Notes: generated from the sequence alone by a model not told the origin. Shown: positions 19,301-33,749, counted from the stretch's first letter. The stretch is DNA of 64,000 nt from an uncultured Ignavibacteriales bacterium (GCA_964464605.1 CAYXJN010000006.1:124001-188000); one strand, 5' to 3'. Numbers and translations: made by a program.

Positions 19301-20068
19301 ATGACAAACAACAACGACCGCACCAATTTTGAAGTATTACACAGGTTAGCCGTCAGTTCGGCCGGCGGCGGTAATCTGGCTGAACTTGCCCAGCAGGCCT
19401 TGGAAGGGGCGGCTGTGTATCTCGGCCTTGATGCCGCCGCGCTGATCTTGTGGGACGGTTCATATAGGGTAACATTGGCGGCCTCTCATGCTGTTTCCGA
19501 CGATGCCAAATCATATCTTTTAGCGCAGGAATCAGAACTCTTCAAGTCATTGCGGGAAAAACGGGGATTAGTCACGGCACGGCTTTCTTTTGCCGGGCCG
19601 GTGCCGCACCATCTGTTTACGCTGCCGCTCCAATACAACGAAGCAGTCTATGGCGCGGTAATCGGCTATCAGCGGGGGAAAGAGATGTCTGCATCTGCGG
19701 ATTCATTCTTAGCCACCCTTGTTGCATTGTTAGCGCTGCATGTTGCGGCGACCAATTCCGAAAACAGTTCATCTGTCCCTGAGCTTATCGAGCGGGAAAA
19801 ATTAGCGGCCGTTATTCAAACCGCAGTGACGGTTAACCATGAAGTCAATAATCCGCTCACCGCTATTTTAGGAAATGTCCAATTACTGCTTTTGAAACGG
19901 GCTGATTTGGATGATGAGCTTCGTGCAAAATTGAAGACGATTGAAGAGTCTGCAATGAAAATAAAAGAAGTCACCCACAGGCTGTTGCAGCTTACCGCCG
20001 TTCGCACCAAGCAATACAGTGAGGGGACGCAAATGCTCGATCTTTCCGGTAACGAGGAATCAAAGTAA
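19301..20068 (+). CDS. GAF-like plus HisKA (DHp) domain protein lacking an HATPase domain
   Basis: H-box VTVNHEVNNPLTAILGN near the C-terminus. The protein ends about 75 aa later without N/G1/G2 boxes. Confidence 0.75.
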   Translation: MTNNNDRTNFEVLHRLAVSSAGGGNLAELAQQALEGAAVYLGLDAAALILWDGSYRVTLAASHAVSDDAKSYLLAQESELFKSLREKRGLVTARLSFAGPVPHHLFTLPLQYNEAVYGAVIGYQRGKEMSASADSFLATLVALLALHVAATNSENSSSVPELIEREKLAAVIQTAVTVNHEVNNPLTAILGNVQLLLLKRADLDDELRAKLKTIEESAMKIKEVTHRLLQLTAVRTKQYSEGTQMLDLSGNEESK

Positions 20069-20079
20069 CGCACCGGCTG

Positions 20080-21228
20080 TCAGATAACGTTTATCTCTTC
20101 GACTGTTTTTCCTAAAGCAAATCGTTCCGGGGAAAGGGGACTGATATCGATACTCGGCGTTTTCCCCATAACCATTTCCGATGTCACCATTCCGGCTGCC
20201 GGAGCATGCATAAAGCCATGTCCGGAGAATCCGGCGACATGAAAAAATCCGTTCAATGACGGCTCCCACCCGATTATCGCATGATGATCCGGCGTTGTTT
20301 CATATAATCCCGCCCAGACATTCGCGATTTCCGCAACTTCCAACTGCGGCATCCGATTTAATCCCCGCTCTAAAATAGCATCGGTGTAGTTCGGGTCGAT
20401 GGAAATATCGAACGACGGTTTCACCGTTTTATCTGCCCATCCCAACAACATCCCCTGAGATTCTTTGTGGCAGTACAATCCGGTAGAAACATCGACCACC
20501 ATCGGGAAAAACGGCTTCACGAAATCAAGCGCGCCGGTCGTGACAATCTGCCGTTTGAGCGGTTCAATCGGAATGTTCCGACCGATCATCTGCCCGATCA
20601 ATTTCGAAAACGGCCCGCTGCAATTGAGCAACAAAGGTGTGCTGATTTCGCCGTTTGGTGTTTGAACACCAACGATTTTATCGGCTGCTAAGTTGATGCC
20701 GGTGACCGGAGAATCTAAAAGAATTTCCACGCCCATTCGCCGGGCAGCTTCTGCATAGCCGGATAGAAACTCGTACGGATCTCCCAACCCATCCTTCTTG
20801 CAGAATGTCGCCAAGAGGATATCATCAAGACGAACGTGCGGCGCATATTGCGGAATGTCGGATGGCTGCAAAAGTTCGGCGGGAAGGCCAAGCGAACGCT
20901 GGAGTTCGTAGTGCTTTTTGTAGGCGGCGACATCGGCTTCATTATCCAGTAAGAACAAATAACCGACCTGATCGAACAGGGCATGGTAGCCGGTATCTTC
21001 CTGAAACCGTTCGAACAACGATTCGGATAGCATCGACATTTCGATATTAACTTTAGTCGAAAACTGGGCACGGATACCACCGGCTGCTTTGGAAGTCGCG
21101 CCGGAGCCGAGTACCGGCTCTTTTTCCAAAAGGACTATCGAACCGAATTTTGCTTTCGCTAAATAAAAGGCGACGGCGGCGCCGATAATCCCGCCGCCGA
21201 TTATTACGACATCGGCCTGTTTTTTCAC
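20080..21228 (-). CDS. FAD-dependent oxidoreductase, DAO/sarcosine oxidase beta-subunit-like
   Basis: VVIIGGGIIG, GATSKAAGGIR, WAGLYETTPDHH, GFSGHGFMHAP. Confidence 0.88.
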   Translation of the reverse strand: MKKQADVVIIGGGIIGAAVAFYLAKAKFGSIVLLEKEPVLGSGATSKAAGGIRAQFSTKVNIEMSMLSESLFERFQEDTGYHALFDQVGYLFLLDNEADVAAYKKHYELQRSLGLPAELLQPSDIPQYAPHVRLDDILLATFCKKDGLGDPYEFLSGYAEAARRMGVEILLDSPVTGINLAADKIVGVQTPNGEISTPLLLNCSGPFSKLIGQMIGRNIPIEPLKRQIVTTGALDFVKPFFPMVVDVSTGLYCHKESQGMLLGWADKTVKPSFDISIDPNYTDAILERGLNRMPQLEVAEIANVWAGLYETTPDHHAIIGWEPSLNGFFHVAGFSGHGFMHAPAAGMVTSEMVMGKTPSIDISPLSPERFALGKTVEEINVI

Positions 21229-21377
21229 TCTCTCTCCAGCAACTCATCATACTGCGAATTCATGCGACAGAAAGTATGCACCAACCGGGAAGTCGGCAAG
21301 GGTAATTCGCGGGAAAATGTTGCGGAGTATTATCTTGTCCGGCTGTACGGCAGGGCGTACCATTTCAGGCACTACGT

Positions 21378-23684
21378 ATGCATTACCCGCGTGTCCGAAC
21401 CGATTTAGAGCATGTCCAGTCGACGATCGACGGACAAACATTCTACACGATCAAAGACCCGATTACCGGCACATTCTTTCGGGTGCGTGAGCCGGAGTTC
21501 TGGATACTTTCCCGACTCGACGGGCACACCTCGTTCGAAACCATCGCCATTCAATTTTCCGAAAGATTCGGTGCCACCCTTTCGACGCAAGCGGTGGAGC
21601 AGTTCACTAATCGTTTGGGTACGCTTGCTTTTTTAGAAACGAACAGCAGCGAGCGAAAAGTAGATGACGCCAAAGAAAGCCAGGCGAAGAAAAAATCTGC
21701 CCTTTCCCGTATTCTGTATATCAAATTAGGGAGCGTTAATCCGGCTAAAGTTCTGGCTCCCTTGGCGCGCTGGTATCGCCCGTTTCATTCTATCTATCTG
21801 TTCCTCTTGGCAACGGCGATTATTCTCTTCGGACATCTTGTTTTATATCTCAACAGCGCTTCGTTTACGTTCGATTTGATGTCCTTTGCGACCGTCAACT
21901 CCATCGTTATTATTCTCTTGTCATTATTCATTCTCGTGACCATCCATGAATTTGCCCATGCTGTTGTCTGCCGCTATTACGGGGGAGAGGTGCGTGATAT
22001 GGGGTTTATGCTGATGTACTTTCAGCCCTGCTTTTATGCTGATCTTTCCGATGCCTGGATGTTTCCGAAAAAAACGCATCGCTTAGCCGTTACCTGGGCG
22101 GGGCCGTTCGCGCAGTTTGTATTGACTGCGCTTGCCGTAATCGTCTGGCGCGTGACAGTACCGGGCACGTGGGTGAACCATCTTGCCGCTGCTATTACGG
22201 TTATTTCATGGGTAACGATTCTCTTTAATTTCAATCCGCTGATTAAGCTCGACGGATACTACCTGCTTTCCGATTGGGTGGAAATTCCGAATCTGCGTGC
22301 GAAATCATTCGCCTATCTTGATTATCTGTTCCAGAGGCATATCCTCGGTTGGCCGATTGAAAAGCCGGATGCCACCCCGCGGGAGCGAACAATTTTTCTT
22401 TTATACGCCATACTGGGAATGATTTTCTCGGTCGCGCTCGTGGTGTTGTTCTTCATGACAGCCGTTAAGTTCGTGCATGCGCAGTTCGGGGGATTCGGTT
22501 TGGGCTTGTTGCTTCTGCTGGTTTTGTATACGTTACAGCCGGCGATATTCGCGCTTGGGCGTGGAGTAGTGCGCCATATATCAGTTATGAAATCACTTGT
22601 CTCCCGTCCTTTACGTTTAGTGCGAACACTTGTCGTGATCGTGCTGCTTTTTATTGTGCTTGTTGTCATACCGTTTCCGCATACGGTATCCGGCGATGTC
22701 ACCGTACAGCCGATTGCCAAGTTTGATTTACTCTTAAATCAACTCGGATTACTTGAAAGCAAAGTTTCGTTCGGCGGTGCTGTACGGGAATCGAAATCGA
22801 CTTTCTTGCAAACGACAGTTGATGAAATGTCCCGCCTTGACCTCGTTCCGTTAGTACGGGATGGGCAACAGGTAAAAGCGGGGGACACGGTGGCAGCGTT
22901 GTCATCGACCCATGTGAACAAAGAAATCGAGCAGGCTGTTTTCGAGCTGCAGCGCTTGAATGATCAACTTGCCCTCTTGCAATCTCCGCCGAAGAAAGAA
23001 GCAGTTGCGCAGGCGGAAGCGGAAGTGCGCGCATCCAAAGTCAATCGTGATCAATCCGAGCGTGAATTGAAGCGTTTGAAAGATTTGGCGGATAAAAAAC
23101 TGATAACGGCAGAACAATTGGAAGCCGGTCAGACAGCGTTCGATGTTGCCTCGGCCGATGTGAGCAACAAAGAGTCTCGTCTGCGTCTTTTGAAGGCTCC
23201 GCCCAAGAAAGAGGAGGAGGCGGTCATCCGTTCGCAGATCGGGATGCAGGAAACAAAGCTCCAGTACCTTCGCATTCAGGCGGCTTCGCAATCTTTTACG
23301 ACCCCGATTTCCGGAACGGCCTCGACTTTTGCAAATAACGGCAGTGTCGTCAGTGTGGCAGAGGTCAATAAAGTTGAAGTGCAGATACCGGTGTCAGATT
23401 TTGACATCGCATTGATCGATACCGGGCAGGAAGTAAAGGTCCGCGTACGTTCCGATGCCGAACGTGCGTTTACCGGAACAGTTGTGCATATTCCCAAGCT
23501 TGCAACGGAAGTTAATGGCCAAGCACGATTTATGGTGACCGTACAGCTGGATAACAGTGACGGCGCTCTAACCAGCGGCGTCAGCGGCTATGCGAAGATA
23601 GTCGTTGGCAGGCGTTCACTTGCCGCTCAGGGCTTACGCAAATTAAAGTCACTGTTTAGGGTCGAATTCTGGTCTCTTTGGTAA
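21378..23684 (+). CDS. RRE/PqqD-like domain + M50 (site-2) zinc metalloprotease + HlyD-type membrane fusion domain protein
   Basis: N-terminal ~85 aa (IKDPITGTFFRV...LSRLDG...FTNRLGTLAFLE) is PqqD/RRE-like. HEFAH, WAGP and NFNPLIKLDGYY are M50 motifs. VRDGQQVKAGD lipoyl half, coiled coil and TPISG are HlyD features. Confidence 0.85.
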   Translation: MHYPRVRTDLEHVQSTIDGQTFYTIKDPITGTFFRVREPEFWILSRLDGHTSFETIAIQFSERFGATLSTQAVEQFTNRLGTLAFLETNSSERKVDDAKESQAKKKSALSRILYIKLGSVNPAKVLAPLARWYRPFHSIYLFLLATAIILFGHLVLYLNSASFTFDLMSFATVNSIVIILLSLFILVTIHEFAHAVVCRYYGGEVRDMGFMLMYFQPCFYADLSDAWMFPKKTHRLAVTWAGPFAQFVLTALAVIVWRVTVPGTWVNHLAAAITVISWVTILFNFNPLIKLDGYYLLSDWVEIPNLRAKSFAYLDYLFQRHILGWPIEKPDATPRERTIFLLYAILGMIFSVALVVLFFMTAVKFVHAQFGGFGLGLLLLLVLYTLQPAIFALGRGVVRHISVMKSLVSRPLRLVRTLVVIVLLFIVLVVIPFPHTVSGDVTVQPIAKFDLLLNQLGLLESKVSFGGAVRESKSTFLQTTVDEMSRLDLVPLVRDGQQVKAGDTVAALSSTHVNKEIEQAVFELQRLNDQLALLQSPPKKEAVAQAEAEVRASKVNRDQSERELKRLKDLADKKLITAEQLEAGQTAFDVASADVSNKESRLRLLKAPPKKEEEAVIRSQIGMQETKLQYLRIQAASQSFTTPISGTASTFANNGSVVSVAEVNKVEVQIPVSDFDIALIDTGQEVKVRVRSDAERAFTGTVVHIPKLATEVNGQARFMVTVQLDNSDGALTSGVSGYAKIVVGRRSLAAQGLRKLKSLFRVEFWSLW

Positions 23685-23709
23685 TACTTTAAGCGGAATA
23701 TTTTTCCCG

Positions 23710-23793
23710 TCACATTGTAACAGATTGTTTTCCAATGCGATCATCGCATTCGCCCGGGTGATCGCATTGTAAAATCACATTTTCCCCTTGACG
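23710..23793 (+). promoter_or_regulatory. Array of TCRCATT boxes with a palindrome, upstream of a TTGACG -35 box
   Basis: TCRCATT at 23710, 23744, 23762 and 23775, inverted copy at 23734-23740 (palindrome AATGCGAT-C-ATCGCATT, 23734-23750), TTGACG at 23788-23793. Confidence 0.5.
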
Positions 23794-23921
23794 TTTTTTC
23801 ACTTTTACGTTTCTTTTTAGGCAGTGAAGACCAAGACCAGTAAACCCTGCGGTGGTCTTGTACGTTGTTGGGATAACTACGCGCAGGTACACGATGAATC
23901 ATTTGGAAGGAGGTGACCCAA

Positions 23922-23996
23922 ATGGAATACACACTGACAGTTGAAGTGTTGGAGGCCCGTATCGCTCCGGTCGGTATTTCCCAGGGCGGTCAGTAA
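23922..23996 (+). CDS. 24-aa peptide MEYTLTVEVLEARIAPVGISQGGQ (LExRIAP leader-like motif), putative precursor peptide
   Basis: AAGGAGGTGA SD ending 5 nt before the ATG, clean ORF ending TAA, followed by an intrinsic terminator, adjacent to the RRE-M50-HlyD gene. Confidence 0.8.
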   Translation: MEYTLTVEVLEARIAPVGISQGGQ

Positions 23997-24022
23997 TACG
24001 ACCCTCTAAACAATAACGAAGA

Positions 24023-27000
24023 TTATTGTTCGGGCAATCGCGTAGTTTGCGATTGCCCTTCTTTTTTTCCACCCAACCGTTCGTTGAGCTTACGGATCTC
24101 CAACATCAACTTTTGAATCGCGGGCATGTTCTGAAACTGTTCTTTATCGGTTGTCGAGCGAATGCTATCCCGAATCTGTCCCCAGACCTGCAATGCTTTT
24201 TTGTACATGGCGAATGCGGTCTCATACTTTTTGGCGTAAAACGATATTTCACCTTTGATCGTCATGAGCGCTGCCATCTCGGGCAGCAGCGAACTTTTAT
24301 CGGCCAGTGTGATGCCCCGCTCAACGGCAGTCGTTGCCTGTTCAATTTGACCGGTGAGCATGAAAGCCCGGGCGAGTACCTGGCAGATAAAAGGAAGCTC
24401 GATATCCTCGTTCATATTTTGTGCTGCAGAATATAAACCGGCAAGCAGTGCCGTATCAATCGCATTGGCATCACTTGCTTCAAGCGACCGCTCCAGCTTG
24501 ATCGCCATAAGAATCGTACGTTCACGGGTAAGATGAAGCTGCTCTATCAACTGTTCGGCATCGGGAATGATGCTTGCGTCCTTCGATATTTTCGCCAACA
24601 GGAACAATGAGTTGAGCGCATTCTGCATGTTATCCAGTTTTCGGGATTCGGCGAGTGTGCGGACTGCCACTGCTTCAGCTTTGGTTACGTCGCCGACATG
24701 GTAGCGTAAGCCGGCTTCGGTAATATCAGCCTCGATTGTGACATTCGGATCATCGATTTTCGAAAGAATAACGCGAACCTGACCGAGCACATTTTCGGCG
24801 TCACCGTACATGCCGATACGTTTCATCACCGATGCTTTCGCTAAACTCATAACACCGGCGCGGGGGAGGTCTTCAAGTACCTGACAAAGCTCCAAACCTT
24901 GCTTGATATAGGCAAGTGATTCACGAAGGCGGCCGGCCATAATCATGACCGCGCCGAGATTTTCAAGATTGAATAAAATCTCCCGCTTACTGCCGATACG
25001 CTGATTCAGTTCGAGTGATTCTTTCAAACAGACAACGCCCTGCTGCGGGTTGCCGGACGTGCTATACACATAGCCGAGATTATTCAGTGTTCGCGCGATT
25101 TCACCACCCAATCCTAACTCTTTCTTAAGCGCCAGACTGTGATTGTAAATACGAATGGCACGGGGGTACTGTCCACCGAGGGCGTAAACTCCGGCGATAT
25201 TGTTCAGTGTCGAGGCAACCTCGGCATCCGCTTTCATCGTTCGCTGCAAGCGCAGCGCCGCTCGGTAATTCGTGAGTGCCGATTTCAAATCAGCAGCTAC
25301 CCAGTACATATTGCCAATATTGTTTAGGGTATGCGACGCGCCAAGTTTGTCGCCGAGTGAATCGTAAATCTCCTGCGCTTTGCGTAATGATTGAATCCCA
25401 GCTTCGAACTGATGTTTCATCTTATAAATGTCACCGACATCTTTATACGTTTCGGCGAGCAGCTTGTCCGGTTTGGCATTTGTGTAGCTGTCGATAATTT
25501 GCTGATAAACCATCATCGCCGGTTCCATATTCCCCTGTTGCTTGAGAATATCGGCTTTTGCCATCAGCACAGAGCGGGTTTGCGGTATTTGACGGCACAG
25601 TTCTGCAAGTTCGATAATACCGGTGAGAAGCTGCAATGCCTCCGTGTTTCGATTTTCATTATGGAGCTGGTTTCCGCTTTCTACGCCCAATGATGCCGCG
25701 CTAACGAGTGAACCCGCAAAGGTAAAGAGTCGGGCGGCTGAGCCGTATCGTCCGGCATTATCCTCTGTCCGTCCAAGATGAGCAGCTATTCGCTTGACCT
25801 GACGATAGGAAAGCAAGGGAAGTAAAAGCATCGCGCTGGCGTAATCTTCGCTATTCGATTTAATATGCGCCTGATTTATTTCGAATCGGGTTGAGTTTTG
25901 TAAGAGGGCTAAGCGAAGCTGATGCTTCTTTTTTTGCAGCGGTGCCTTTGCAAAGTTATTCAGGAAATAGCGGCGAACCCGATTTGGCCAAATGACCGTT
26001 TTCGCAAACCGGAATTTTGTGCCGTCAAAGCGAAGCGTGCCGCGCCGGAAATTGCAGGTGAGCACACAGCGCAGATGTTCGGTATGTAAAGCGGTAATAC
26101 AATCGAGCCGCTCTCTTTCAGGTGCGTTGAGCACAAGGATGTTTTCAATGATAGACGTATACGTATGCTCTGCATCTACCAGATGACACGCCCGCAGTGC
26201 TTTCTGATACGGATAGGCTGCACCGCACTGTTGCAACAGCTCGCATACCTGCCATGCGCTGGTTAATCGCTTTTCCGGAGTTTTTGCCAAAAGCAAATTT
26301 ACCAGTTTTATCACAGTCGCAGGTAAATCTGAACGCAATTGTTCAAGCGGCGTCGGTTCTGATTCACGAATCCTGCTGTTTACTTTAACTGGGTCAGCAT
26401 CTTCCTGCATAAAAGGGTGTTGTCCCGACAACACCTGATATGCAATAATACCGAGGGCAAAGAGATCACTCTGATGCGAGGTCTGCCCATTCGCGATCGT
26501 TTCCGGCGCCATATAACCGACACTTCCTAATCCGGCACGGGCTGATTCCGGTTCAGCGGTAAGTCGGCCAAACGCGAAATCGGAAAGCTTGGTATAGAAC
26601 AACTTTGCTCCGGTCTGTGATTGCCAGTCACTCGGCAAAAAGAAATTATGCGGCTTTAAGTCAGCATGGATGATTCCGCAGGCGTGAAGATAGGCAAGAT
26701 CAAGAGCGAGTGCTGAGAGCACATTAAGCGCCAGCGGAAGTGATTCGATTTTTCCGACTCTATCCAGCGTCGGCCCCTTGCAGAGCTCCATTGCCAGACC
26801 CTCTTCCGGTTTCATGCCGGTATCCAGAATACGGACTAAGCCAGGAAAACGACGTCCCATGATAAGCTGTTGTTCGCGGGCAGCTAATTTAGCAAAGGGG
26901 ATAGCGGAAGCGGATTCGCCGGGAAGCGGACGTTTCAGCGCGATATCGGTGTTAAGCTGCGGGGAAAATAGACGAACGACTTCAGCCGTTCCGCCTTTAC

Positions 27001-27049
27001 CAAGCGGAGTGCCGGGTGCGTCGGAAAGGAGAGTATCGGGACGGCTCAT
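24023..27049 (-). CDS. Ser/Thr protein kinase with C-terminal TPR array
   Basis: LGKGGTAEV, IALK, HADLKPHN, SDFA, GYMAPE and SDLFALG kinase motifs. Repeats such as SHTLNNIGNMY, ASTLNNIAGVY and ARTLNNLGYVY are TPR-like. Confidence 0.88.
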   Translation of the reverse strand: MSRPDTLLSDAPGTPLGKGGTAEVVRLFSPQLNTDIALKRPLPGESASAIPFAKLAAREQQLIMGRRFPGLVRILDTGMKPEEGLAMELCKGPTLDRVGKIESLPLALNVLSALALDLAYLHACGIIHADLKPHNFFLPSDWQSQTGAKLFYTKLSDFAFGRLTAEPESARAGLGSVGYMAPETIANGQTSHQSDLFALGIIAYQVLSGQHPFMQEDADPVKVNSRIRESEPTPLEQLRSDLPATVIKLVNLLLAKTPEKRLTSAWQVCELLQQCGAAYPYQKALRACHLVDAEHTYTSIIENILVLNAPERERLDCITALHTEHLRCVLTCNFRRGTLRFDGTKFRFAKTVIWPNRVRRYFLNNFAKAPLQKKKHQLRLALLQNSTRFEINQAHIKSNSEDYASAMLLLPLLSYRQVKRIAAHLGRTEDNAGRYGSAARLFTFAGSLVSAASLGVESGNQLHNENRNTEALQLLTGIIELAELCRQIPQTRSVLMAKADILKQQGNMEPAMMVYQQIIDSYTNAKPDKLLAETYKDVGDIYKMKHQFEAGIQSLRKAQEIYDSLGDKLGASHTLNNIGNMYWVAADLKSALTNYRAALRLQRTMKADAEVASTLNNIAGVYALGGQYPRAIRIYNHSLALKKELGLGGEIARTLNNLGYVYSTSGNPQQGVVCLKESLELNQRIGSKREILFNLENLGAVMIMAGRLRESLAYIKQGLELCQVLEDLPRAGVMSLAKASVMKRIGMYGDAENVLGQVRVILSKIDDPNVTIEADITEAGLRYHVGDVTKAEAVAVRTLAESRKLDNMQNALNSLFLLAKISKDASIIPDAEQLIEQLHLTRERTILMAIKLERSLEASDANAIDTALLAGLYSAAQNMNEDIELPFICQVLARAFMLTGQIEQATTAVERGITLADKSSLLPEMAALMTIKGEISFYAKKYETAFAMYKKALQVWGQIRDSIRSTTDKEQFQNMPAIQKLMLEIRKLNERLGGKKEGQSQTTRLPEQ
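24032..24068 (+). terminator. Intrinsic terminator of the peptide gene (overlaps the 3' end of the convergent kinase gene)
   Basis: GGGCAATCGC-GTAGTTT-GCGATTGCCC-TTCTTTTTTT: perfect 10-bp stem plus U-tract. Confidence 0.8.
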
Positions 27050-28872
27050 GCCGGTTTCTCAACCGGTTTCTGTTGGAAGCGCGGAAGCAGGAGCGTAAAG
27101 GTCGTCCCCTGTCCGAGCGTCGATGAAACCAAGAGCTCTCCATGATGATTTTCGTTGATAATCTTCTTGCAGTGATAGAGCCCAAGTCCATGGCCGGTTT
27201 TCTTTGTGCTGTAGTAGATCATAAAGATCTTCTTCATTGTTTCTTCGGACATTCCTATTCCGTTATCGCTGACATCGACCCGAATACGGTCGTGGAAGGC
27301 GTCGAACGATGCTGAGATGCTGATCTCACGGGTAAAGTCGAGTCCCTGCTTGGATGAGGTAACCGCGCGCTCTTCCGTAGCATCAGCTGCATTGTTAAGT
27401 AAGTTCAACAGTACCTGCTGGATTTGACCCACGTCGATTTCGCAGGTCGGCAGCTCTTTGGCCAAATCAAGGCTGAACTGCATATAGCGGAAACGGGTGT
27501 GCGGGCGGAGCGAAAAGAGCAGGTCCTCGATCAAATGACGGACATCGTATACAATATGTTCCGTTTCGACTTTCAATGAATCATTGAGTCCGTCGACGAA
27601 ACGCTTGATTCTAAAGATATTTTCGACAATAGCGTTGCCGCTGAATTTTGCTTTTTCATAATTCTTGGCGTCGATATTCATGGAAAGCAATTCAGCATTG
27701 GTGGCCGCAATCTGCAGATAATTGTTCAGTTCGTGGGCGATTGTCGCGGCCATTTCCCCTTTGGCGACCAGCTTTTCAGACAGAATGAGATGTTTCTCGA
27801 TAACCACTTTTTCAGTGACATCTTCAATCGCCATAATCAGACCATCACCGCCGTCGGGCAACGATGAAATAGGGGAGATCTTGATAGAAAGCGCTTTTTC
27901 GACAAAGGCGGTGTTATGGAAAAATCGGGCGTCGGCATATTCGGTCTTGGTGGTTAAGGCAGTGTTAATCATATACTGCCAGCGGGCACGCTCACTGTCC
28001 GGAAGTAATTCGACAAAGTAAGAAGCGTGGCCGCTATGTCCGTACATTTTCACTTTGCTTCGGTCGAGCTCAAAAATTTCAAGTGCAGCCGGGTTCATGG
28101 TGGCAACCCGTCCTTTCGTATCAAGCACAATAATACCGACCGGTACGGTTTCGACAACCGACGTGGTATAATGTTGCAGACGGTTGACGGCGCTGTGGAT
28201 TTGGGCGTTGTGCAGGGCGTTGGCAGCCATTTGCGCGTAGACCTGGAATAAGGACAAGTCGGACTGTAGGAACATCCCTTTTTCGTTCGAGTTATCAAGA
28301 TAGATAACGCCGATGATCTCTTCTTTGAGCTTGATCGGAACGCACATAATAGAGCGCAGGTTCAGTTCGGTGATTGAAGGGATATCCTGATATTTTTCAT
28401 CCGACTGGGCGTCGCTGGTATAAATAGCTTCGCCGGTAAGGGCTACTTTGGTGGCGATAGATTTGGAGAACCGGACATCGTCGTCACTCATGCCGCTTTT
28501 GCTGAATTGATGCGCCTCATGGAATTTGAGGGTGCCTTCTTCAACCGGGATAATCATACCCCGTTCGGCATTCATTAATTCGATCGCCCGCTCCATAACT
28601 TTTCTGAGCACTTCCCGCAAATCAAGCGAGGAGTTGATGAAGAGAGAGACTTCGAGAATTTCCTGAAGGTTCTTTAAGGCAAGTCCGTTTTGCGGCTGTT
28701 CATCGATACGCGGAGCTGCTTCGGTAATCCCTTCCATGATGCTGTTCGCTTCCTGAAACAGGTCAACCGGGCTGGTCGGACGCTTTTCGGTACTGTCTAA
28801 CGGATTGGATGATTCATCCGAGAGAAGCTTCCGAATATCTAATTTTCCAGTGCCTTTTCCGAAATCTTCCAC
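27046..28872 (-). CDS. Cytoplasmic GAF-PAS histidine kinase
   Basis: GAF (LRSIMCVPI..IGVIYLDN), PAS-like segment, IAHELNN H-box, QVLLNLLNNA, VSDNGIG, GHGLGL, GQGTTF. Confidence 0.92.
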   Translation of the reverse strand: MEDFGKGTGKLDIRKLLSDESSNPLDSTEKRPTSPVDLFQEANSIMEGITEAAPRIDEQPQNGLALKNLQEILEVSLFINSSLDLREVLRKVMERAIELMNAERGMIIPVEEGTLKFHEAHQFSKSGMSDDDVRFSKSIATKVALTGEAIYTSDAQSDEKYQDIPSITELNLRSIMCVPIKLKEEIIGVIYLDNSNEKGMFLQSDLSLFQVYAQMAANALHNAQIHSAVNRLQHYTTSVVETVPVGIIVLDTKGRVATMNPAALEIFELDRSKVKMYGHSGHASYFVELLPDSERARWQYMINTALTTKTEYADARFFHNTAFVEKALSIKISPISSLPDGGDGLIMAIEDVTEKVVIEKHLILSEKLVAKGEMAATIAHELNNYLQIAATNAELLSMNIDAKNYEKAKFSGNAIVENIFRIKRFVDGLNDSLKVETEHIVYDVRHLIEDLLFSLRPHTRFRYMQFSLDLAKELPTCEIDVGQIQQVLLNLLNNAADATEERAVTSSKQGLDFTREISISASFDAFHDRIRVDVSDNGIGMSEETMKKIFMIYYSTKKTGHGLGLYHCKKIINENHHGELLVSSTLGQGTTFTLLLPRFQQKPVEKPA

Positions 28873-31505: not shown

Positions 31506-33749
31506 TTAGAGAGCGTTTATTTTAAGCGCAATAATCGTGCGGTCATCCCGCGGCGGTTCGGTCGGGTCATAGCTGCGGACATCGGTAACAAGCTTGTTGA
31601 TTAATGTGTCAGGATCGCATTCCCGGTGTGAATGGACAAACTCCTGAACCCGCTGCTCGCCGTATTCGACTTCCTGTTCATTCATTGCTTCGGAGAGCCC
31701 GTCGGTAAAAAAGAGTAACATATCTTCCGGTTCGAGCACGACCGATTCGGCGGTGTATTCCATATTCGGCAAAGCGCCGATAATCGGTCCGCCCGTTTTC
31801 AACGGCTCGACTTTGCCGTCCTTCCGAACCAAGAGCGGATAGTTATGTCCCGCGTTGGAGTAGTTGAAGACAAACTTTTCTCCCTGCAATTCGCCGTAGA
31901 AAAGCGTGACATAGGCTTCCGTCGATGATGACTGTACTAGCAGCTGGTTCATGTTGCGCATCATCGCGCTGATCGAATTACCGTTGTTCACTTCGCTGCG
32001 AATCATCGCCTGTATCTGCGCGATCATAAGCGCAGCGGGCATCCCTTTACCGGAAGCATCCGCGATGACCATTCCCCAGCGATCGTTCGGCAGGCGAATG
32101 AAATCATAGAAGTCACCTCCAACCGTTCGGGAGGGGGTCGAGTGAACGGAAACTCGGAACTTGTCATGTTTCGGCGGAGCAGCGGGGAGGAGTCCCAGCT
32201 GAATCTGCCGCGCCATGGAGACTTCTTCCTGCAAACGCAAACGTTCAAGCGAATCGGCATATAAACGTACACTGTTCAAGGCCGCAACCATCTGATTGGA
32301 AAGTACACCCATTAAATTCAAATCATCCGAGGAAAACCGGTAACTGCCGATTTTATCGGAAAGGGCAAGAAAGCCAAGCAGATTTTTTGAGTCTTTGAGC
32401 GGCATAATCAGTTTTGCTCTGCGCTCATCTAACAAACCGGAGAGTGCCGAACCCTGCGAATATTCATTCAAAGATGAATAATAAGTCGGCGAATCAAGCA
32501 GGTTGATGCCGCGCAGCATAAGGTCGGTGCGTTCAAGCACGACTCGTTTGTCGAAATCCTCACTTGGCTGAACGGCGTATTCGTTGACGGTGTCATCGTA
32601 CAGCACGAAATAAACCTGCTCGACTAAGAGTGTGGTTTTGAGCGTTTCTTCGATAACGCTGCGCAGCTGCCGTTGATCGAAAATCGTAATAACCTGCCGT
32701 GAGAATTTTTCAAGCACATTGCGGTGGTCGGTACGGGTACGGATAAACATTGCCCGAATCAGATTATCGAGCCAAGTGTTAATCGGCTGGAAAACGAGCA
32801 GAGCCAGAATAATGAGTACATACGCAGCGATATCCGCCCGCTCACCCGCTAACGGCCTGAGCCAGTTCTTTGCCTGAAACGCGAGTACGATATAGCTGCC
32901 GACCAGCGAGGCGGAGGCAATCGCCGATACGAACGACTGCCGGAAAATCAGACTGAGATCAAGGAACTGGTATCGGATCGTTGCATACATAAAAATCACT
33001 GCGCCGATAAAGGTCGCCACGAGGGTCATGGTGGTTTTGATATTCGGCGTAACCGTTTCCGGCAGAATCAGCCAGCCGATTACGGCAAGCAGGTAGATAC
33101 CAAGTCCGATACGAATCGACCAGAGGATGAATGTCATCTGCGAAGCGAGTCGCGGATTCGTGACGAACCGTTTGCCGTTTTCAAACAGATACCAGGCGGT
33201 GGCGGCAAAAAAGATATTGATAAAAGCGAAAATCTTCGGACTGTTGGTCCCAATAAACGTGACCAGGATCAAGAGCCATGATGCGAGCTTGGATAACGGC
33301 TGCATGAGAATGGAAGCAAAGCCGCTATCGCTTGAGTAGGCGGCGAGTGAGGCCATTACGCTGACGATTTCATCGAGAAATCCGGTGATAATAACATGCG
33401 CGACAGCCGGCAGGAAAAGCAGATACCACAAGCGCGGGTAACGAATATTGCGATACCGATCGATCGGATAGGAAAGGGAGAACAAAATCAAGCAGGGAAA
33501 AAATAGCTCCCAAATACTCTGAAACCGAGAGAGCATAGAGGTTCCGGAACGGATATCAGAAAATATGGCAATACCGAGCACACCCGACACACCGATAAAA
33601 AGCGGTCCCAGCCCTGCGAAAAAGAGGGTTGCTCCGGCGAGACGGTTCAAGCGACTGCTGAAATTATCACGCGCAATTGCTACCGCCAGGAAGATCATTA
33701 ATCCTCCCATCAGAAAGTAAAGCAGCGACTGTATGAGCGTTCCGTTCAT
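31506..33749 (-). CDS. Membrane-bound SpoIIE/RsbU-type PP2C phosphatase with GAF domain
   Basis: About nine N-terminal TM segments, GAF-like segment, VGGDFYD, IADASGKG, SNAGH, FFTDGLSEA, DDRT. Confidence 0.9.
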   Translation of the reverse strand: MNGTLIQSLLYFLMGGLMIFLAVAIARDNFSSRLNRLAGATLFFAGLGPLFIGVSGVLGIAIFSDIRSGTSMLSRFQSIWELFFPCLILFSLSYPIDRYRNIRYPRLWYLLFLPAVAHVIITGFLDEIVSVMASLAAYSSDSGFASILMQPLSKLASWLLILVTFIGTNSPKIFAFINIFFAATAWYLFENGKRFVTNPRLASQMTFILWSIRIGLGIYLLAVIGWLILPETVTPNIKTTMTLVATFIGAVIFMYATIRYQFLDLSLIFRQSFVSAIASASLVGSYIVLAFQAKNWLRPLAGERADIAAYVLIILALLVFQPINTWLDNLIRAMFIRTRTDHRNVLEKFSRQVITIFDQRQLRSVIEETLKTTLLVEQVYFVLYDDTVNEYAVQPSEDFDKRVVLERTDLMLRGINLLDSPTYYSSLNEYSQGSALSGLLDERRAKLIMPLKDSKNLLGFLALSDKIGSYRFSSDDLNLMGVLSNQMVAALNSVRLYADSLERLRLQEEVSMARQIQLGLLPAAPPKHDKFRVSVHSTPSRTVGGDFYDFIRLPNDRWGMVIADASGKGMPAALMIAQIQAMIRSEVNNGNSISAMMRNMNQLLVQSSSTEAYVTLFYGELQGEKFVFNYSNAGHNYPLLVRKDGKVEPLKTGGPIIGALPNMEYTAESVVLEPEDMLLFFTDGLSEAMNEQEVEYGEQRVQEFVHSHRECDPDTLINKLVTDVRSYDPTEPPRDDRTIIALKINAL

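Follow-up and report, generated by a model that had tools for sequence, protein, structure and literature searches.

What does a membrane protein that joins a leader-recognition domain, an intramembrane protease and an export adaptor do beside a gene of 24 codons and two kinase genes that converge upon it? The question is raised by a stretch of 64,000 nucleotides from an uncultured Ignavibacteriales bacterium (GCA_964464605.1 CAYXJN010000006.1:124001-188000), which was analysed as a whole and is hereafter called the window, its positions being counted from its first letter. The original prediction, made from the sequence alone, picked out four elements: a fusion of a RiPP recognition element (RRE; RiPP, ribosomally synthesised and post-translationally modified peptide), an M50 protease and an HlyD adaptor; a small open reading frame (sORF); a Ser/Thr kinase with tetratricopeptide repeats (STK-TPR); and a GAF histidine kinase (HK). 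All four lie where it had placed them (aa, amino acids):

21378-23684, plus strand: RRE-M50-HlyD fusion, 768 aa (Pfam and NCBIfam matches, invariant residues, structure models)
21378-21650, plus strand: RRE of the fusion, about aa 1-90 (RRE-only model, structure comparison)
About aa 135-400 of the fusion, plus strand: M50 core of six helices (H190, E191, H194, D292)
aa 414-432 of the fusion, plus strand: seventh transmembrane segment (hydropathy)
About aa 433-768 of the fusion, plus strand: HlyD-type adaptor, probably periplasmic (Pfam, Foldseek; C-terminal motif RVEFWSxW)
23907-23916, plus strand: Shine-Dalgarno sequence AAGGAGGTGA, 5 nt ahead of the ATG of the sORF (sequence)
23922-23996, plus strand: precursor peptide gene, 24 aa, with leader MEYTLTVEVLEARIAP and predicted core VGISQGGQ (conservation, codon signature, Shine-Dalgarno sequence)
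24023-27049, minus strand: Hanks-type Ser/Thr kinase (aa 15-265) with a TPR array (about aa 460-950), 1008 aa (Pfam)
27046-28872, minus strand: GAF-PAS HK, 608 aa (Pfam)

The peptide gene, the membrane protein and the two kinases look like one inherited unit across an uncultured phylum, and like a peptide-signalling circuit that has not been described. The reading best supported by homology, linkage and co-inheritance, which support it in part, is a leader-dependent module for the maturation and export of a peptide, wired to a cytoplasmic kinase pair. We regard the chances for and against this reading as evenly balanced. That the four elements recur together goes far beyond chance.

The fusion carries the hallmarks of the M50 proteases, i.e., an HExxH motif (HEFAH, aa 190-194) and a downstream aspartate ligand (in NFNPLIKLDG, aa 284-293) within hydrophobic segments. 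Its residues H190, E191, H194, N284, N286, P287, L288, K290 and D292 are invariant across 18 homologues. The Pfam model Peptidase_M50 (PF02163) matches aa 179-257 with 41.4 bits against a cut-off of 27.2, and the NCBIfam model daptide_HExxH (NF041824) matches aa 24-387 with an E-value of 1.6e-67, although its 228.3 bits fall short of the equivalog cut-off of 300. Further along, Pfam HlyD domains cover aa 461-734 and the NCBIfam adaptor models, all of them far under their own cut-offs, extend to aa 747. Foldseek places this C-terminal part among the MacA/EmrA adaptors (9qgy_G at an E-value of 2.7e-15, 3fpp_A, 8zar_B). The fold of aa 433-768 is thus like theirs, but the partner of this adaptor is a protease, joined to it in one chain, and not an ABC or MFS pump. 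A Kyte-Doolittle scan found seven hydrophobic segments, six in the protease core and one (aa 414-432) ahead of the adaptor; with this arrangement the N-terminus would be cytoplasmic and the adaptor periplasmic. The adaptor has two helical hairpins with PPKxEE at the turn of each, and the protein ends in an aromatic motif, RVEFWSWW (window 23670-23684), which is conserved in the alignment of the 18 homologues and kept across phyla.

The RRE fold that had been predicted for the N-terminus is present. A full-length model built from the 18 homologues (mean predicted local distance difference test score, pLDDT, 82.3) shows three strands followed by three helices in the first 82 residues, and a model of the RRE only (pLDDT 82.7) places the strands at residues 11-17, 20-26 and 33-37 and the helices at 38-46, 53-64 and 70-82. 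The latter matches best a lasso peptide B1 protein with its leader (6jx3_B; Z 11.4, root-mean-square deviation 2.4, 83 aa aligned), followed by TbiB1 with its leader (5v1u_A, Z 10.5), TigE (8vpo_A, Z 9.9) and PqqD (5sxy, Z 8.7). The Pfam model PqqD was found in the N-terminal domains of 11 of 13 homologues at E<=1 (best 1.6e-5); against the domain of the window itself it scores 12.6 bits, under the cut-off.

The sORF starts 237 nt after the end of the fusion gene and encodes the 24-aa product MEYTLTVEVLEARIAPVGISQGGQ, which has an acidic leader and no hydrophobic signal sequence. Several observations indicate that it is a true gene. In 36 of 38 copies (manual row count) GGAGG occurs within 20 nt upstream. 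The copies from Zixibacteria share the leader consensus LxxExLEx[RK][IV]AP, and an alignment of 44 of them has no variation at L(-12), E(-9), L(-7), E(-6) and P(-1), while A(-2) is kept in at least 90%. When 14 codons of the leader were compared in 39 copies, mean entropy was 0.63 bits at codon position 1, 0.38 at position 2 and 1.48 at position 3, and this variation at third positions implies that selection acts on the protein. The part that follows AP has 6-17 residues, 39% of them Gly: Ser or Thr occurs in 42 of the 44 cores, GG in 39, and 36 have no charged residue. The consensus is xGxSxGGQ, and one core, AGYAGGGL, has neither Ser nor Thr. Most genomes carry one copy and some two to four, and the gene is nearly phylum-wide. 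In 18 precursors, no NCBIfam or Pfam model was found for the leader, and the cores gave low-complexity matches only.

A few copies depart from this pattern. Tandem sORFs, two or more, occur in loci L024 (genome G104), L039 (G001), L092 and L093 (G080, G003); those of G104 have divergent cores (SKYGTDG and SKYGANG), in a genome with a shortened HK match. In G073 (L068, near 7631, minus strand) the leader is intact to LESRI, after which other residues take the place of the AP and the Gly-rich core (MTDYKLTVEVLESRIETTHFSWGSE); the adjoining protease gene and kinase genes are all intact. A frameshift, an error in sequencing or decay could account for this. Outside the window, a stop-to-stop frame of 18 codons without a start codon (G000:C6 near 61215, plus strand; LRIAPLENRLAPVDFAAR) is probably due to chance.

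The closest characterised relatives of this pair of genes appear to be those of the daptides. According to the daptide report (Ren et al., bioRxiv 10.1101/2023.03.08.531785), a site-2 protease there carries an N-terminal RRE fusion, and short ORFs co-occur with it that have a leader ELExMEAP, cleaved after its P(-1), in precursors that end in an invariant Thr. The daptide pair described there (MpaA/DapA and MpaP/DapP) resembles the present one in its RRE-M50 fusion, its short precursor and its leader ending in AP, and the two leaders agree at L(-7), E(-6), A(-2) and P(-1), the one found here reading xLEx[RK][IV]AP. Because the homologous daptide leader is cleaved after P(-1), the cut should fall after Pro16 and free VGISQGGQ (744.377 Da). 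The differences are also clear. The C-terminal Thr that this text gives for daptides is absent from all 44 cores, whose last residue is Q, G, P, S, L or D. None of the daptide tailoring genes (DapB/C/D/M: DUF-RRE, alcohol-dehydrogenase-like decarboxylase, aminotransferase, methyltransferase) was found in the neighbourhood at 14.8-33.7 kb, and unlike in daptides the protease is fused to an HlyD adaptor, the host is a diderm and the partner genes encode kinases. The EpeP/YydH M50 protease of epipeptides, which a review presents as thought to cleave and export a small ribosomal peptide (PMC10885120), is more remote: its model NF058609 gives 47.7 bits against a cut-off of 225, and the present locus differs in having no radical-SAM epimerase and in having the RRE and the adaptor fused on. 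In the literature, we found no description of RRE-M50-HlyD proteins with peptides or of a link to kinases, although the supplements of the daptide and RRE-Finder papers may list the RRE family; strings of the leader motif gave only chance matches inside unrelated words.

The two kinase genes overlap each other by 4 nt, so that they probably share an operon, and both converge on the sORF. Their catalytic residues are intact: K39, E59, H128, D130, K132, N135, D157 and P182-E183 of the Ser/Thr kinase are kept in at least 97% of 48 orthologues, and H380, N490, N494, D536, G540 and the G2 box (G560/562/564) of the HK in at least 97% of 45. Neither kinase shows a hydrophobic segment in the Kyte-Doolittle scan, and both are predicted to be cytoplasmic. 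Far below the cut-offs of NCBIfam, the kinase domain resembles lanthipeptide synthetase kinases and the TPR part a RiPP TPR protein.

We compared the locus across 121 genomes of the phylum (the named matches of the fusion are mostly Zixibacteria), whose families are labelled f1, f2 and so on. An sORF with the same motif lies just downstream of the fusion homologue in 29 of the 30 first loci, the thirtieth being the degenerate copy of G073. It also lies beside the protease gene in all seven f2/f3 loci and in six further loci that a DNA pattern had missed. Searches with the neighbours of the window (tblastn) found STK-TPR adjacent in 18 of 20 f1 loci (it is missing from the locus in G060 and G012) and HK in 19 of 20, and both in the seven f2/f3 loci and in one locus of f18 (L047); PurF, the DAO flavoprotein and Omp85 are kept inside f1 only. 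More distant families contributed 12 loci in which the protease gene has no kinase as a neighbour; in 11 of them the sORF is missing from that place too. Matches to the degenerate DNA pattern of the leader, which occur in 97 of the 121 genomes (22 of 121 for the reversed control; manual count), are located elsewhere in the genomes of these distant families, away from the protease gene. Among 20 unlinked sites that were fetched, a real sORF preceded by a Shine-Dalgarno sequence is present in 18, and a convergent STK-TPR match stands alongside in 17 of the 18, the exception (L090) being a short contig; 15 also have the HK within the 10 kb covered. Five more unlinked sORFs lie next to kinases in genomes missed by the pattern. 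The matches in G081 and G073:C3 were rejected as false positives, both lying inside long ORFs.

The neighbourhood foreseen by the original prediction, with an LExRIAP sORF and the two kinases beside homologues of the fusion, is therefore conserved, and the association with the kinases survives where general synteny is gone, in f2/f3 and at the unlinked sORFs. Since different rearrangements keep each pairing, the peptide gene is tied to the protease and to the kinases separately. The refuting conditions named in the original prediction that were examined, on the RRE fold, the recurring sORF and the kinase synteny, all came out in its favour.

The patterns of presence and absence tell a similar story, in counts for which related genomes are not independent and no tree was built. 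A fusion homologue (E<=1e-20) is found in 108 of the 121 genomes, as a single match in 104 of them. Searched with its non-kinase part (aa 301-1008, E<=1e-15), STK-TPR has a match in 110 genomes, and in 107 of the 108 that have the protease. The 13 genomes without the protease belong to at least 10 genera and 6 families; ten of them have no STK-TPR match and three (G113, G091 and G062) have weak TPR-only stretches (E about 1e-16) in frames of different sizes. The neighbourhood of the HK, fetched in nine of the 13, holds neither an sORF (hmmsearch, E<=5) nor a full STK-TPR gene; in G081 a fragment of the kinase domain is retained near the HK homologue. The HK itself gives a single match at E<=1e-60 in 117 of the 121 genomes.

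The family extends far beyond this phylum. Relatives of the fusion fall into 2444 cluster representatives (50% identity) at E<=1e-30; from about rank 21 on, these are 680-950 aa long and matched chiefly over the RRE-M50 part. Eight distant representatives all have M50 and HlyD domains, and three have PqqD; RVEFWSWW closes the sequences in an aligned set of 16. Species genomes scanned with the single fusion protein gave no loci, and a scan with an alignment of distant homologues later confirmed at least 594 of 599 candidate stretches. The 80 loci that were kept for analysis come from Verrucomicrobiota, Acidobacteriota, Gemmatimonadota, Planctomycetota (including Adhaeretor mobilis), Proteobacteria, Nitrospirae, Rokubacteria, Eisenbacteria, Bacteroidota, Ignavibacteria and others. 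A hidden Markov model of the Zixibacterial peptides matched about 90 ORFs in them at E<=1, and a strict regular expression for the leader found one precursor or more in 49 of the 80. These precursors carry the leader MKxLxLx[IV]EELE[EQ]RIAP followed by low-complexity cores rich in Gly, Asn, Pro and Ser. A locus often has several of them, and most lie immediately upstream of the fusion gene. The locus in the window is thus one form of a very large multi-phylum family of RRE-M50-HlyD proteins with leader peptides, related to the protease and precursor of the daptides, and not a Zixibacterial oddity.

The kinases are another matter. With the STK-TPR and HK of the window as queries (tblastn), matches lie beside the fusion in two of the 80 loci (L161 and L187), with a few further weak matches of the HK, so the link with kinases is not general outside Zixibacteria. 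Four loci of Acidobacteriota with short peptides (these two, L168 and L201) all have a large neighbouring protein of one cluster, in which Pfam recognises, for L161, a kinase, a STAND ATPase, TPR, GAF and a sigma-54 activator. This fusion of kinase, TPR and GAF to a sigma-54 activator argues that the Zixibacterial kinases are regulators and not tailoring enzymes.

Other features of these distant loci are worth recording. Directly after the fusion gene, 17 of the 80 loci (L127-L197, e.g., L155:10882-11937) encode a protein of about 335 aa without a Pfam match, which may be a further component of the non-Zixibacterial systems. In Planctomycetota (L198, L157, L172 and L188) a leader RFxIExLEERIAPS heads longer Gly-rich proteins; one such frame, of 257 codons, lies beside the fusion gene of the cultured strain Adhaeretor mobilis (NZ_CP036263.1, L198, 6594-7364).

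The sORF of the window has candidate transcription signals of its own and is represented in RNA libraries (UTR, untranslated region):

23788-23816, plus strand: sigma-70-like promoter candidate of the sORF (TTGACG at 23788-23793, weak -10; consensus match only)
23837-24005, plus strand: small transcript, 85-nt 5' UTR plus sORF (RNA-library contigs)
24032-24068, plus strand: terminator-like hairpin (24032-24058, 11 pairs) with a T run, inside the last codons of the convergent STK-TPR gene

A regular expression of the type TTGACN-N16-19-TATAxT has a match in 22 of 33 loci at -107 to -144 from the ATG (one at -170), and at -134 here; a strict -24/-12 match to a sigma-54 promoter was found upstream of the sORF in none of the 33. 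Metatranscriptome contigs from four RNA-library runs of four studies, 100% identical to the window, cover 23837-24005, 23849-24003, 23861-24002 (a run whose RNA status is a guess) and 23932-24100. About one in 20 of the sampled words of 21300-24100 is present in RNA-library runs; within these 2801 bases the contigs of the four cover the piece with the sORF only and leave the 2.3-kb protease gene uncovered. A piece of about 160 nt shared by four studies fits a short abundant transcript. Rfam found no riboswitch ahead of the sORF in 23650-24100, and its sole match there, Qrr (23.5 bits against a gathering threshold of 50, E 0.045), was taken as chance. The 5' UTR (window 23840-23905; equivalents in L056-L091) has in most cases a short GC-rich hairpin after AAAC(C), about 25-45 nt before the Shine-Dalgarno sequence, with several stems of the form CCUCC...GGAGG; its fold z-score is modest (mean -1.6, below -2 in 10 of 33).

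The genes around the four elements, at 14.8-33.7 kb, encode an S8 peptidase, PurF, a GAF-HisKA protein, a DAO-type flavoprotein, the two kinases, an Omp85-like protein, a NUDIX protein and a SpoIIE phosphatase. The original prediction had noted that no ABC ATPase or TolC is adjacent. The first point stands, as no ABC ATPase was found among ten neighbouring genes; to the second must be added that the genome has at least five TolC/OEP-family genes elsewhere. The locus also differs from type I secretion (HlyD/HlyB/TolC) in the score of the adaptor, for which TIGR01843 gives 21.8 bits against a cut-off of 208.65, and in having no ABC exporter among the ten neighbours. One SecA_DEAD match lies above the cut-off in the genome, in a 1011-aa frame on another contig, and a second is sub-threshold (21.8 bits).

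Three of these neighbours deserve mention. The DAO/glycine-oxidase-type flavoprotein gene (20080-21228, minus strand) is divergent from the fusion gene and kept in f1; in f4 (L081 and L082) it still adjoins the sORF, with the protease gene about 22 kb off. It may be a candidate for tailoring, or its position may reflect no more than ancestral synteny. The SpoIIE-type membrane PP2C phosphatase (31506-33749, minus strand), 2.6 kb past the HK, carries a GAF-like region in addition to eight hydrophobic segments. Its synteny is kept in several f1 loci, and in G016 (L048) it adjoins the protease gene, which is unlinked there; it may counteract the Ser/Thr kinase. The GAF-HisKA protein (19301-20068, plus strand; 255 aa), between purF and the DAO gene, has no ATPase domain and is conserved in f1.

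How might these components work together? In the mechanism that we favour, the 24-aa precursor would be expressed under its own promoter, with a strong ribosome-binding site, and its leader, LxxExLEx[RK][IV]AP, would dock as a strand on the cytoplasmic RRE of the fusion. The intramembrane zinc protease would then cut after the invariant Pro, so that the 16-aa leader would remain in the cytoplasm and the uncharged, Gly/Ser-rich octapeptide VGISQGGQ would be freed. The fused HlyD-type adaptor and an unlinked TolC-family channel would carry this core outside. The STK-TPR protein and the GAF-PAS HK would form the signalling arm, in which the TPR array would read a cytoplasmic peptide species (the precursor, the released leader or a re-imported core); the kinases may also control production. 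These parts are not equally secure. The RRE-M50 part probably processes this peptide; export by way of the adaptor is slightly favoured over its absence; and the view that the kinases read or control the peptide is somewhat doubtful, falling just short of an even call.

Several observations weigh against the mechanism as a whole. Neither kinase has a membrane segment or a signal sequence. Without hydrophobic segments they could not read an extracellular peptide directly, and since they are soluble, sensing it would require an importer; none was identified. No ATPase or other source of energy for export is adjacent to the fusion gene. The linkage has exceptions: in f10 (G036 and G037) the sORF lies by the protease gene and the kinases are about 120 kb away or on another contig, and G104 has the protease and tandem sORFs with no match of STK-TPR. 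The HK, or a close paralogue, persists in nine of the 13 genomes from which the other three genes are absent, and is therefore less tightly tied to the module. The sORF of G073 has no AP. Finally, the RNA evidence consists of assembled contigs and not of raw reads; these tell neither the strand nor the ends nor the level of the transcript, and a carry-over of DNA is not formally excluded.

The main problem among these is how soluble kinases would sense an exported peptide. It is avoided if the peptide never leaves the cell, as in the chief rival, regulated intramembrane proteolysis without export. The peptide would then be a cytoplasmic partner, an inhibitor or activator, of STK-TPR, and the M50-HlyD protein a sensor of the state of the envelope whose periplasmic domain gates the cleavage of the RRE-bound peptide, the cut switching the kinase pair. 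M50 site-2 proteases are classical signal-transducing proteases, both kinases are cytoplasmic, and the tightest linkage of the sORF is with the STK-TPR gene. There is moreover no adjacent ATPase or importer, only one SecA is present, and the best conserved part of the peptide is the leader, which would remain cytoplasmic. However, a full MacA/EmrA-like adaptor with a conserved alpha-hairpin is an architecture of export, and the fusions of other phyla adjoin multiple precursors with long low-complexity cores that look secreted. The closest characterised relatives, for their part, are the peptidase that removes the daptide leader and EpeP, which the review describes as thought to cleave and export (PMC10885120). 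We consider regulated proteolysis without export unlikely.

The linkage with STK-TPR also allows the kinase to be a tailoring enzyme, whose TPR array would bind the precursor so that Ser or Thr of the core is phosphorylated before the M50 protease removes the leader and the product, a phospho-peptide, is exported. The Ser/Thr present in all but two cores (consensus xGxSxGGQ), the conserved catalytic residues of the kinase, its co-inheritance with the protease and the weak likeness, far below cut-off, to lanthipeptide synthetase kinases and a RiPP TPR protein would all fit. Yet the Acidobacteriota counterpart is fused to a sigma-54 activator, as expected of a regulator rather than of a biosynthetic enzyme, the core AGYAGGGL offers no Ser or Thr to phosphorylate, many loci of other phyla with such leaders have no adjacent kinase, and no lyase or cyclase is present. 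These points make tailoring by the kinase distinctly improbable. Finally, a bacteriocin-like antimicrobial peptide with its own maturation and export protein, beside unrelated kinases, is hardly credible: leader-dependent processing and export are typical of bacteriocins, and the precursors of other phyla are multi-copy with variable cores, but the Zixibacterial cores, 6-17 aa long and uncharged in 36 of 44, are strongly conserved across families, the gene is mostly single-copy and nearly phylum-wide, no immunity gene was seen, the kinase linkage outlasts rearrangement, and the genes are lost together.

If the maturation and export module wired to the kinases is the right reading, it resembles known signalling systems in part only. 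In the RRNPP systems of Firmicutes (Rap/Phr, NprR/NprX, PlcR/PapR, PrgX), the gene of a Sec-exported propeptide stands beside that of a cytoplasmic TPR receptor with a helix-turn-helix or phosphatase output. The present locus likewise has a small peptide gene beside a cytoplasmic TPR-domain protein and a short, here predicted, processed form. Unlike them, it has no Sec signal, an RRE-type leader with a protease-adaptor, a Hanks-type kinase as output and a diderm host, and no importer was identified. In Agr, one locus encodes the precursor AgrD, the endopeptidase AgrB, which is thought to process and export it, and the membrane-receptor histidine kinase AgrC. A small precursor, a membrane endopeptidase and a histidine kinase are found together here as well, but there is no homology, both kinases are soluble and no thiolactone chemistry is implied.

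A precedent for the fusion itself comes from the work of Kamneva, Poudel and Ward 2015 (PMC4452313), which reports membrane proteins with M50-like and HlyD parts in a conserved secretion-related locus with a GAF protein and no ABC transporter. A role in secretion was proposed there computationally, and that paper describes no RRE, leader peptide or kinase. Those loci carry a second SecA_DEAD, unlike the present genome, which has only one SecA.

A broader proposal can be put forward tentatively, as one that may well not hold. Zixibacteria and some Acidobacteriota would have a new kind of peptide signalling, in which an unmodified Gly/Ser-rich peptide of 6-17 aa, cut from a daptide-like leader, is exported by an ATPase-less M50-HlyD-TolC route, and the TPR receptor of a Hanks-type kinase reads the peptide or the leftover leader, with a GAF HK as output (a sigma-54 activator in Acidobacteria). 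RRE-M50-HlyD proteins would then be a general, undescribed route of leader-guided export in many diderm phyla.

The system lends itself to direct tests, as the prediction specifies a substrate, a cut site and the mass of the product. If the reading is true, an uncultured phylum of the FCB group (Fibrobacterota, Chlorobiota, Bacteroidota) would for the first time have a described peptide-signalling circuit, and no earlier circuit would have had as its candidate receptor a eukaryote-like Ser/Thr kinase that carries a TPR array. The RRE, familiar as the handle of RiPP tailoring enzymes, would prove to guide the plain processing and export of unmodified peptides as well. In a family as large as this one, with 2444 clusters and at least 594 matches in species genomes of many phyla, the reading would also point to a secretion route in which an intramembrane protease takes the place of the ABC, MFS or RND pump of a tripartite system.

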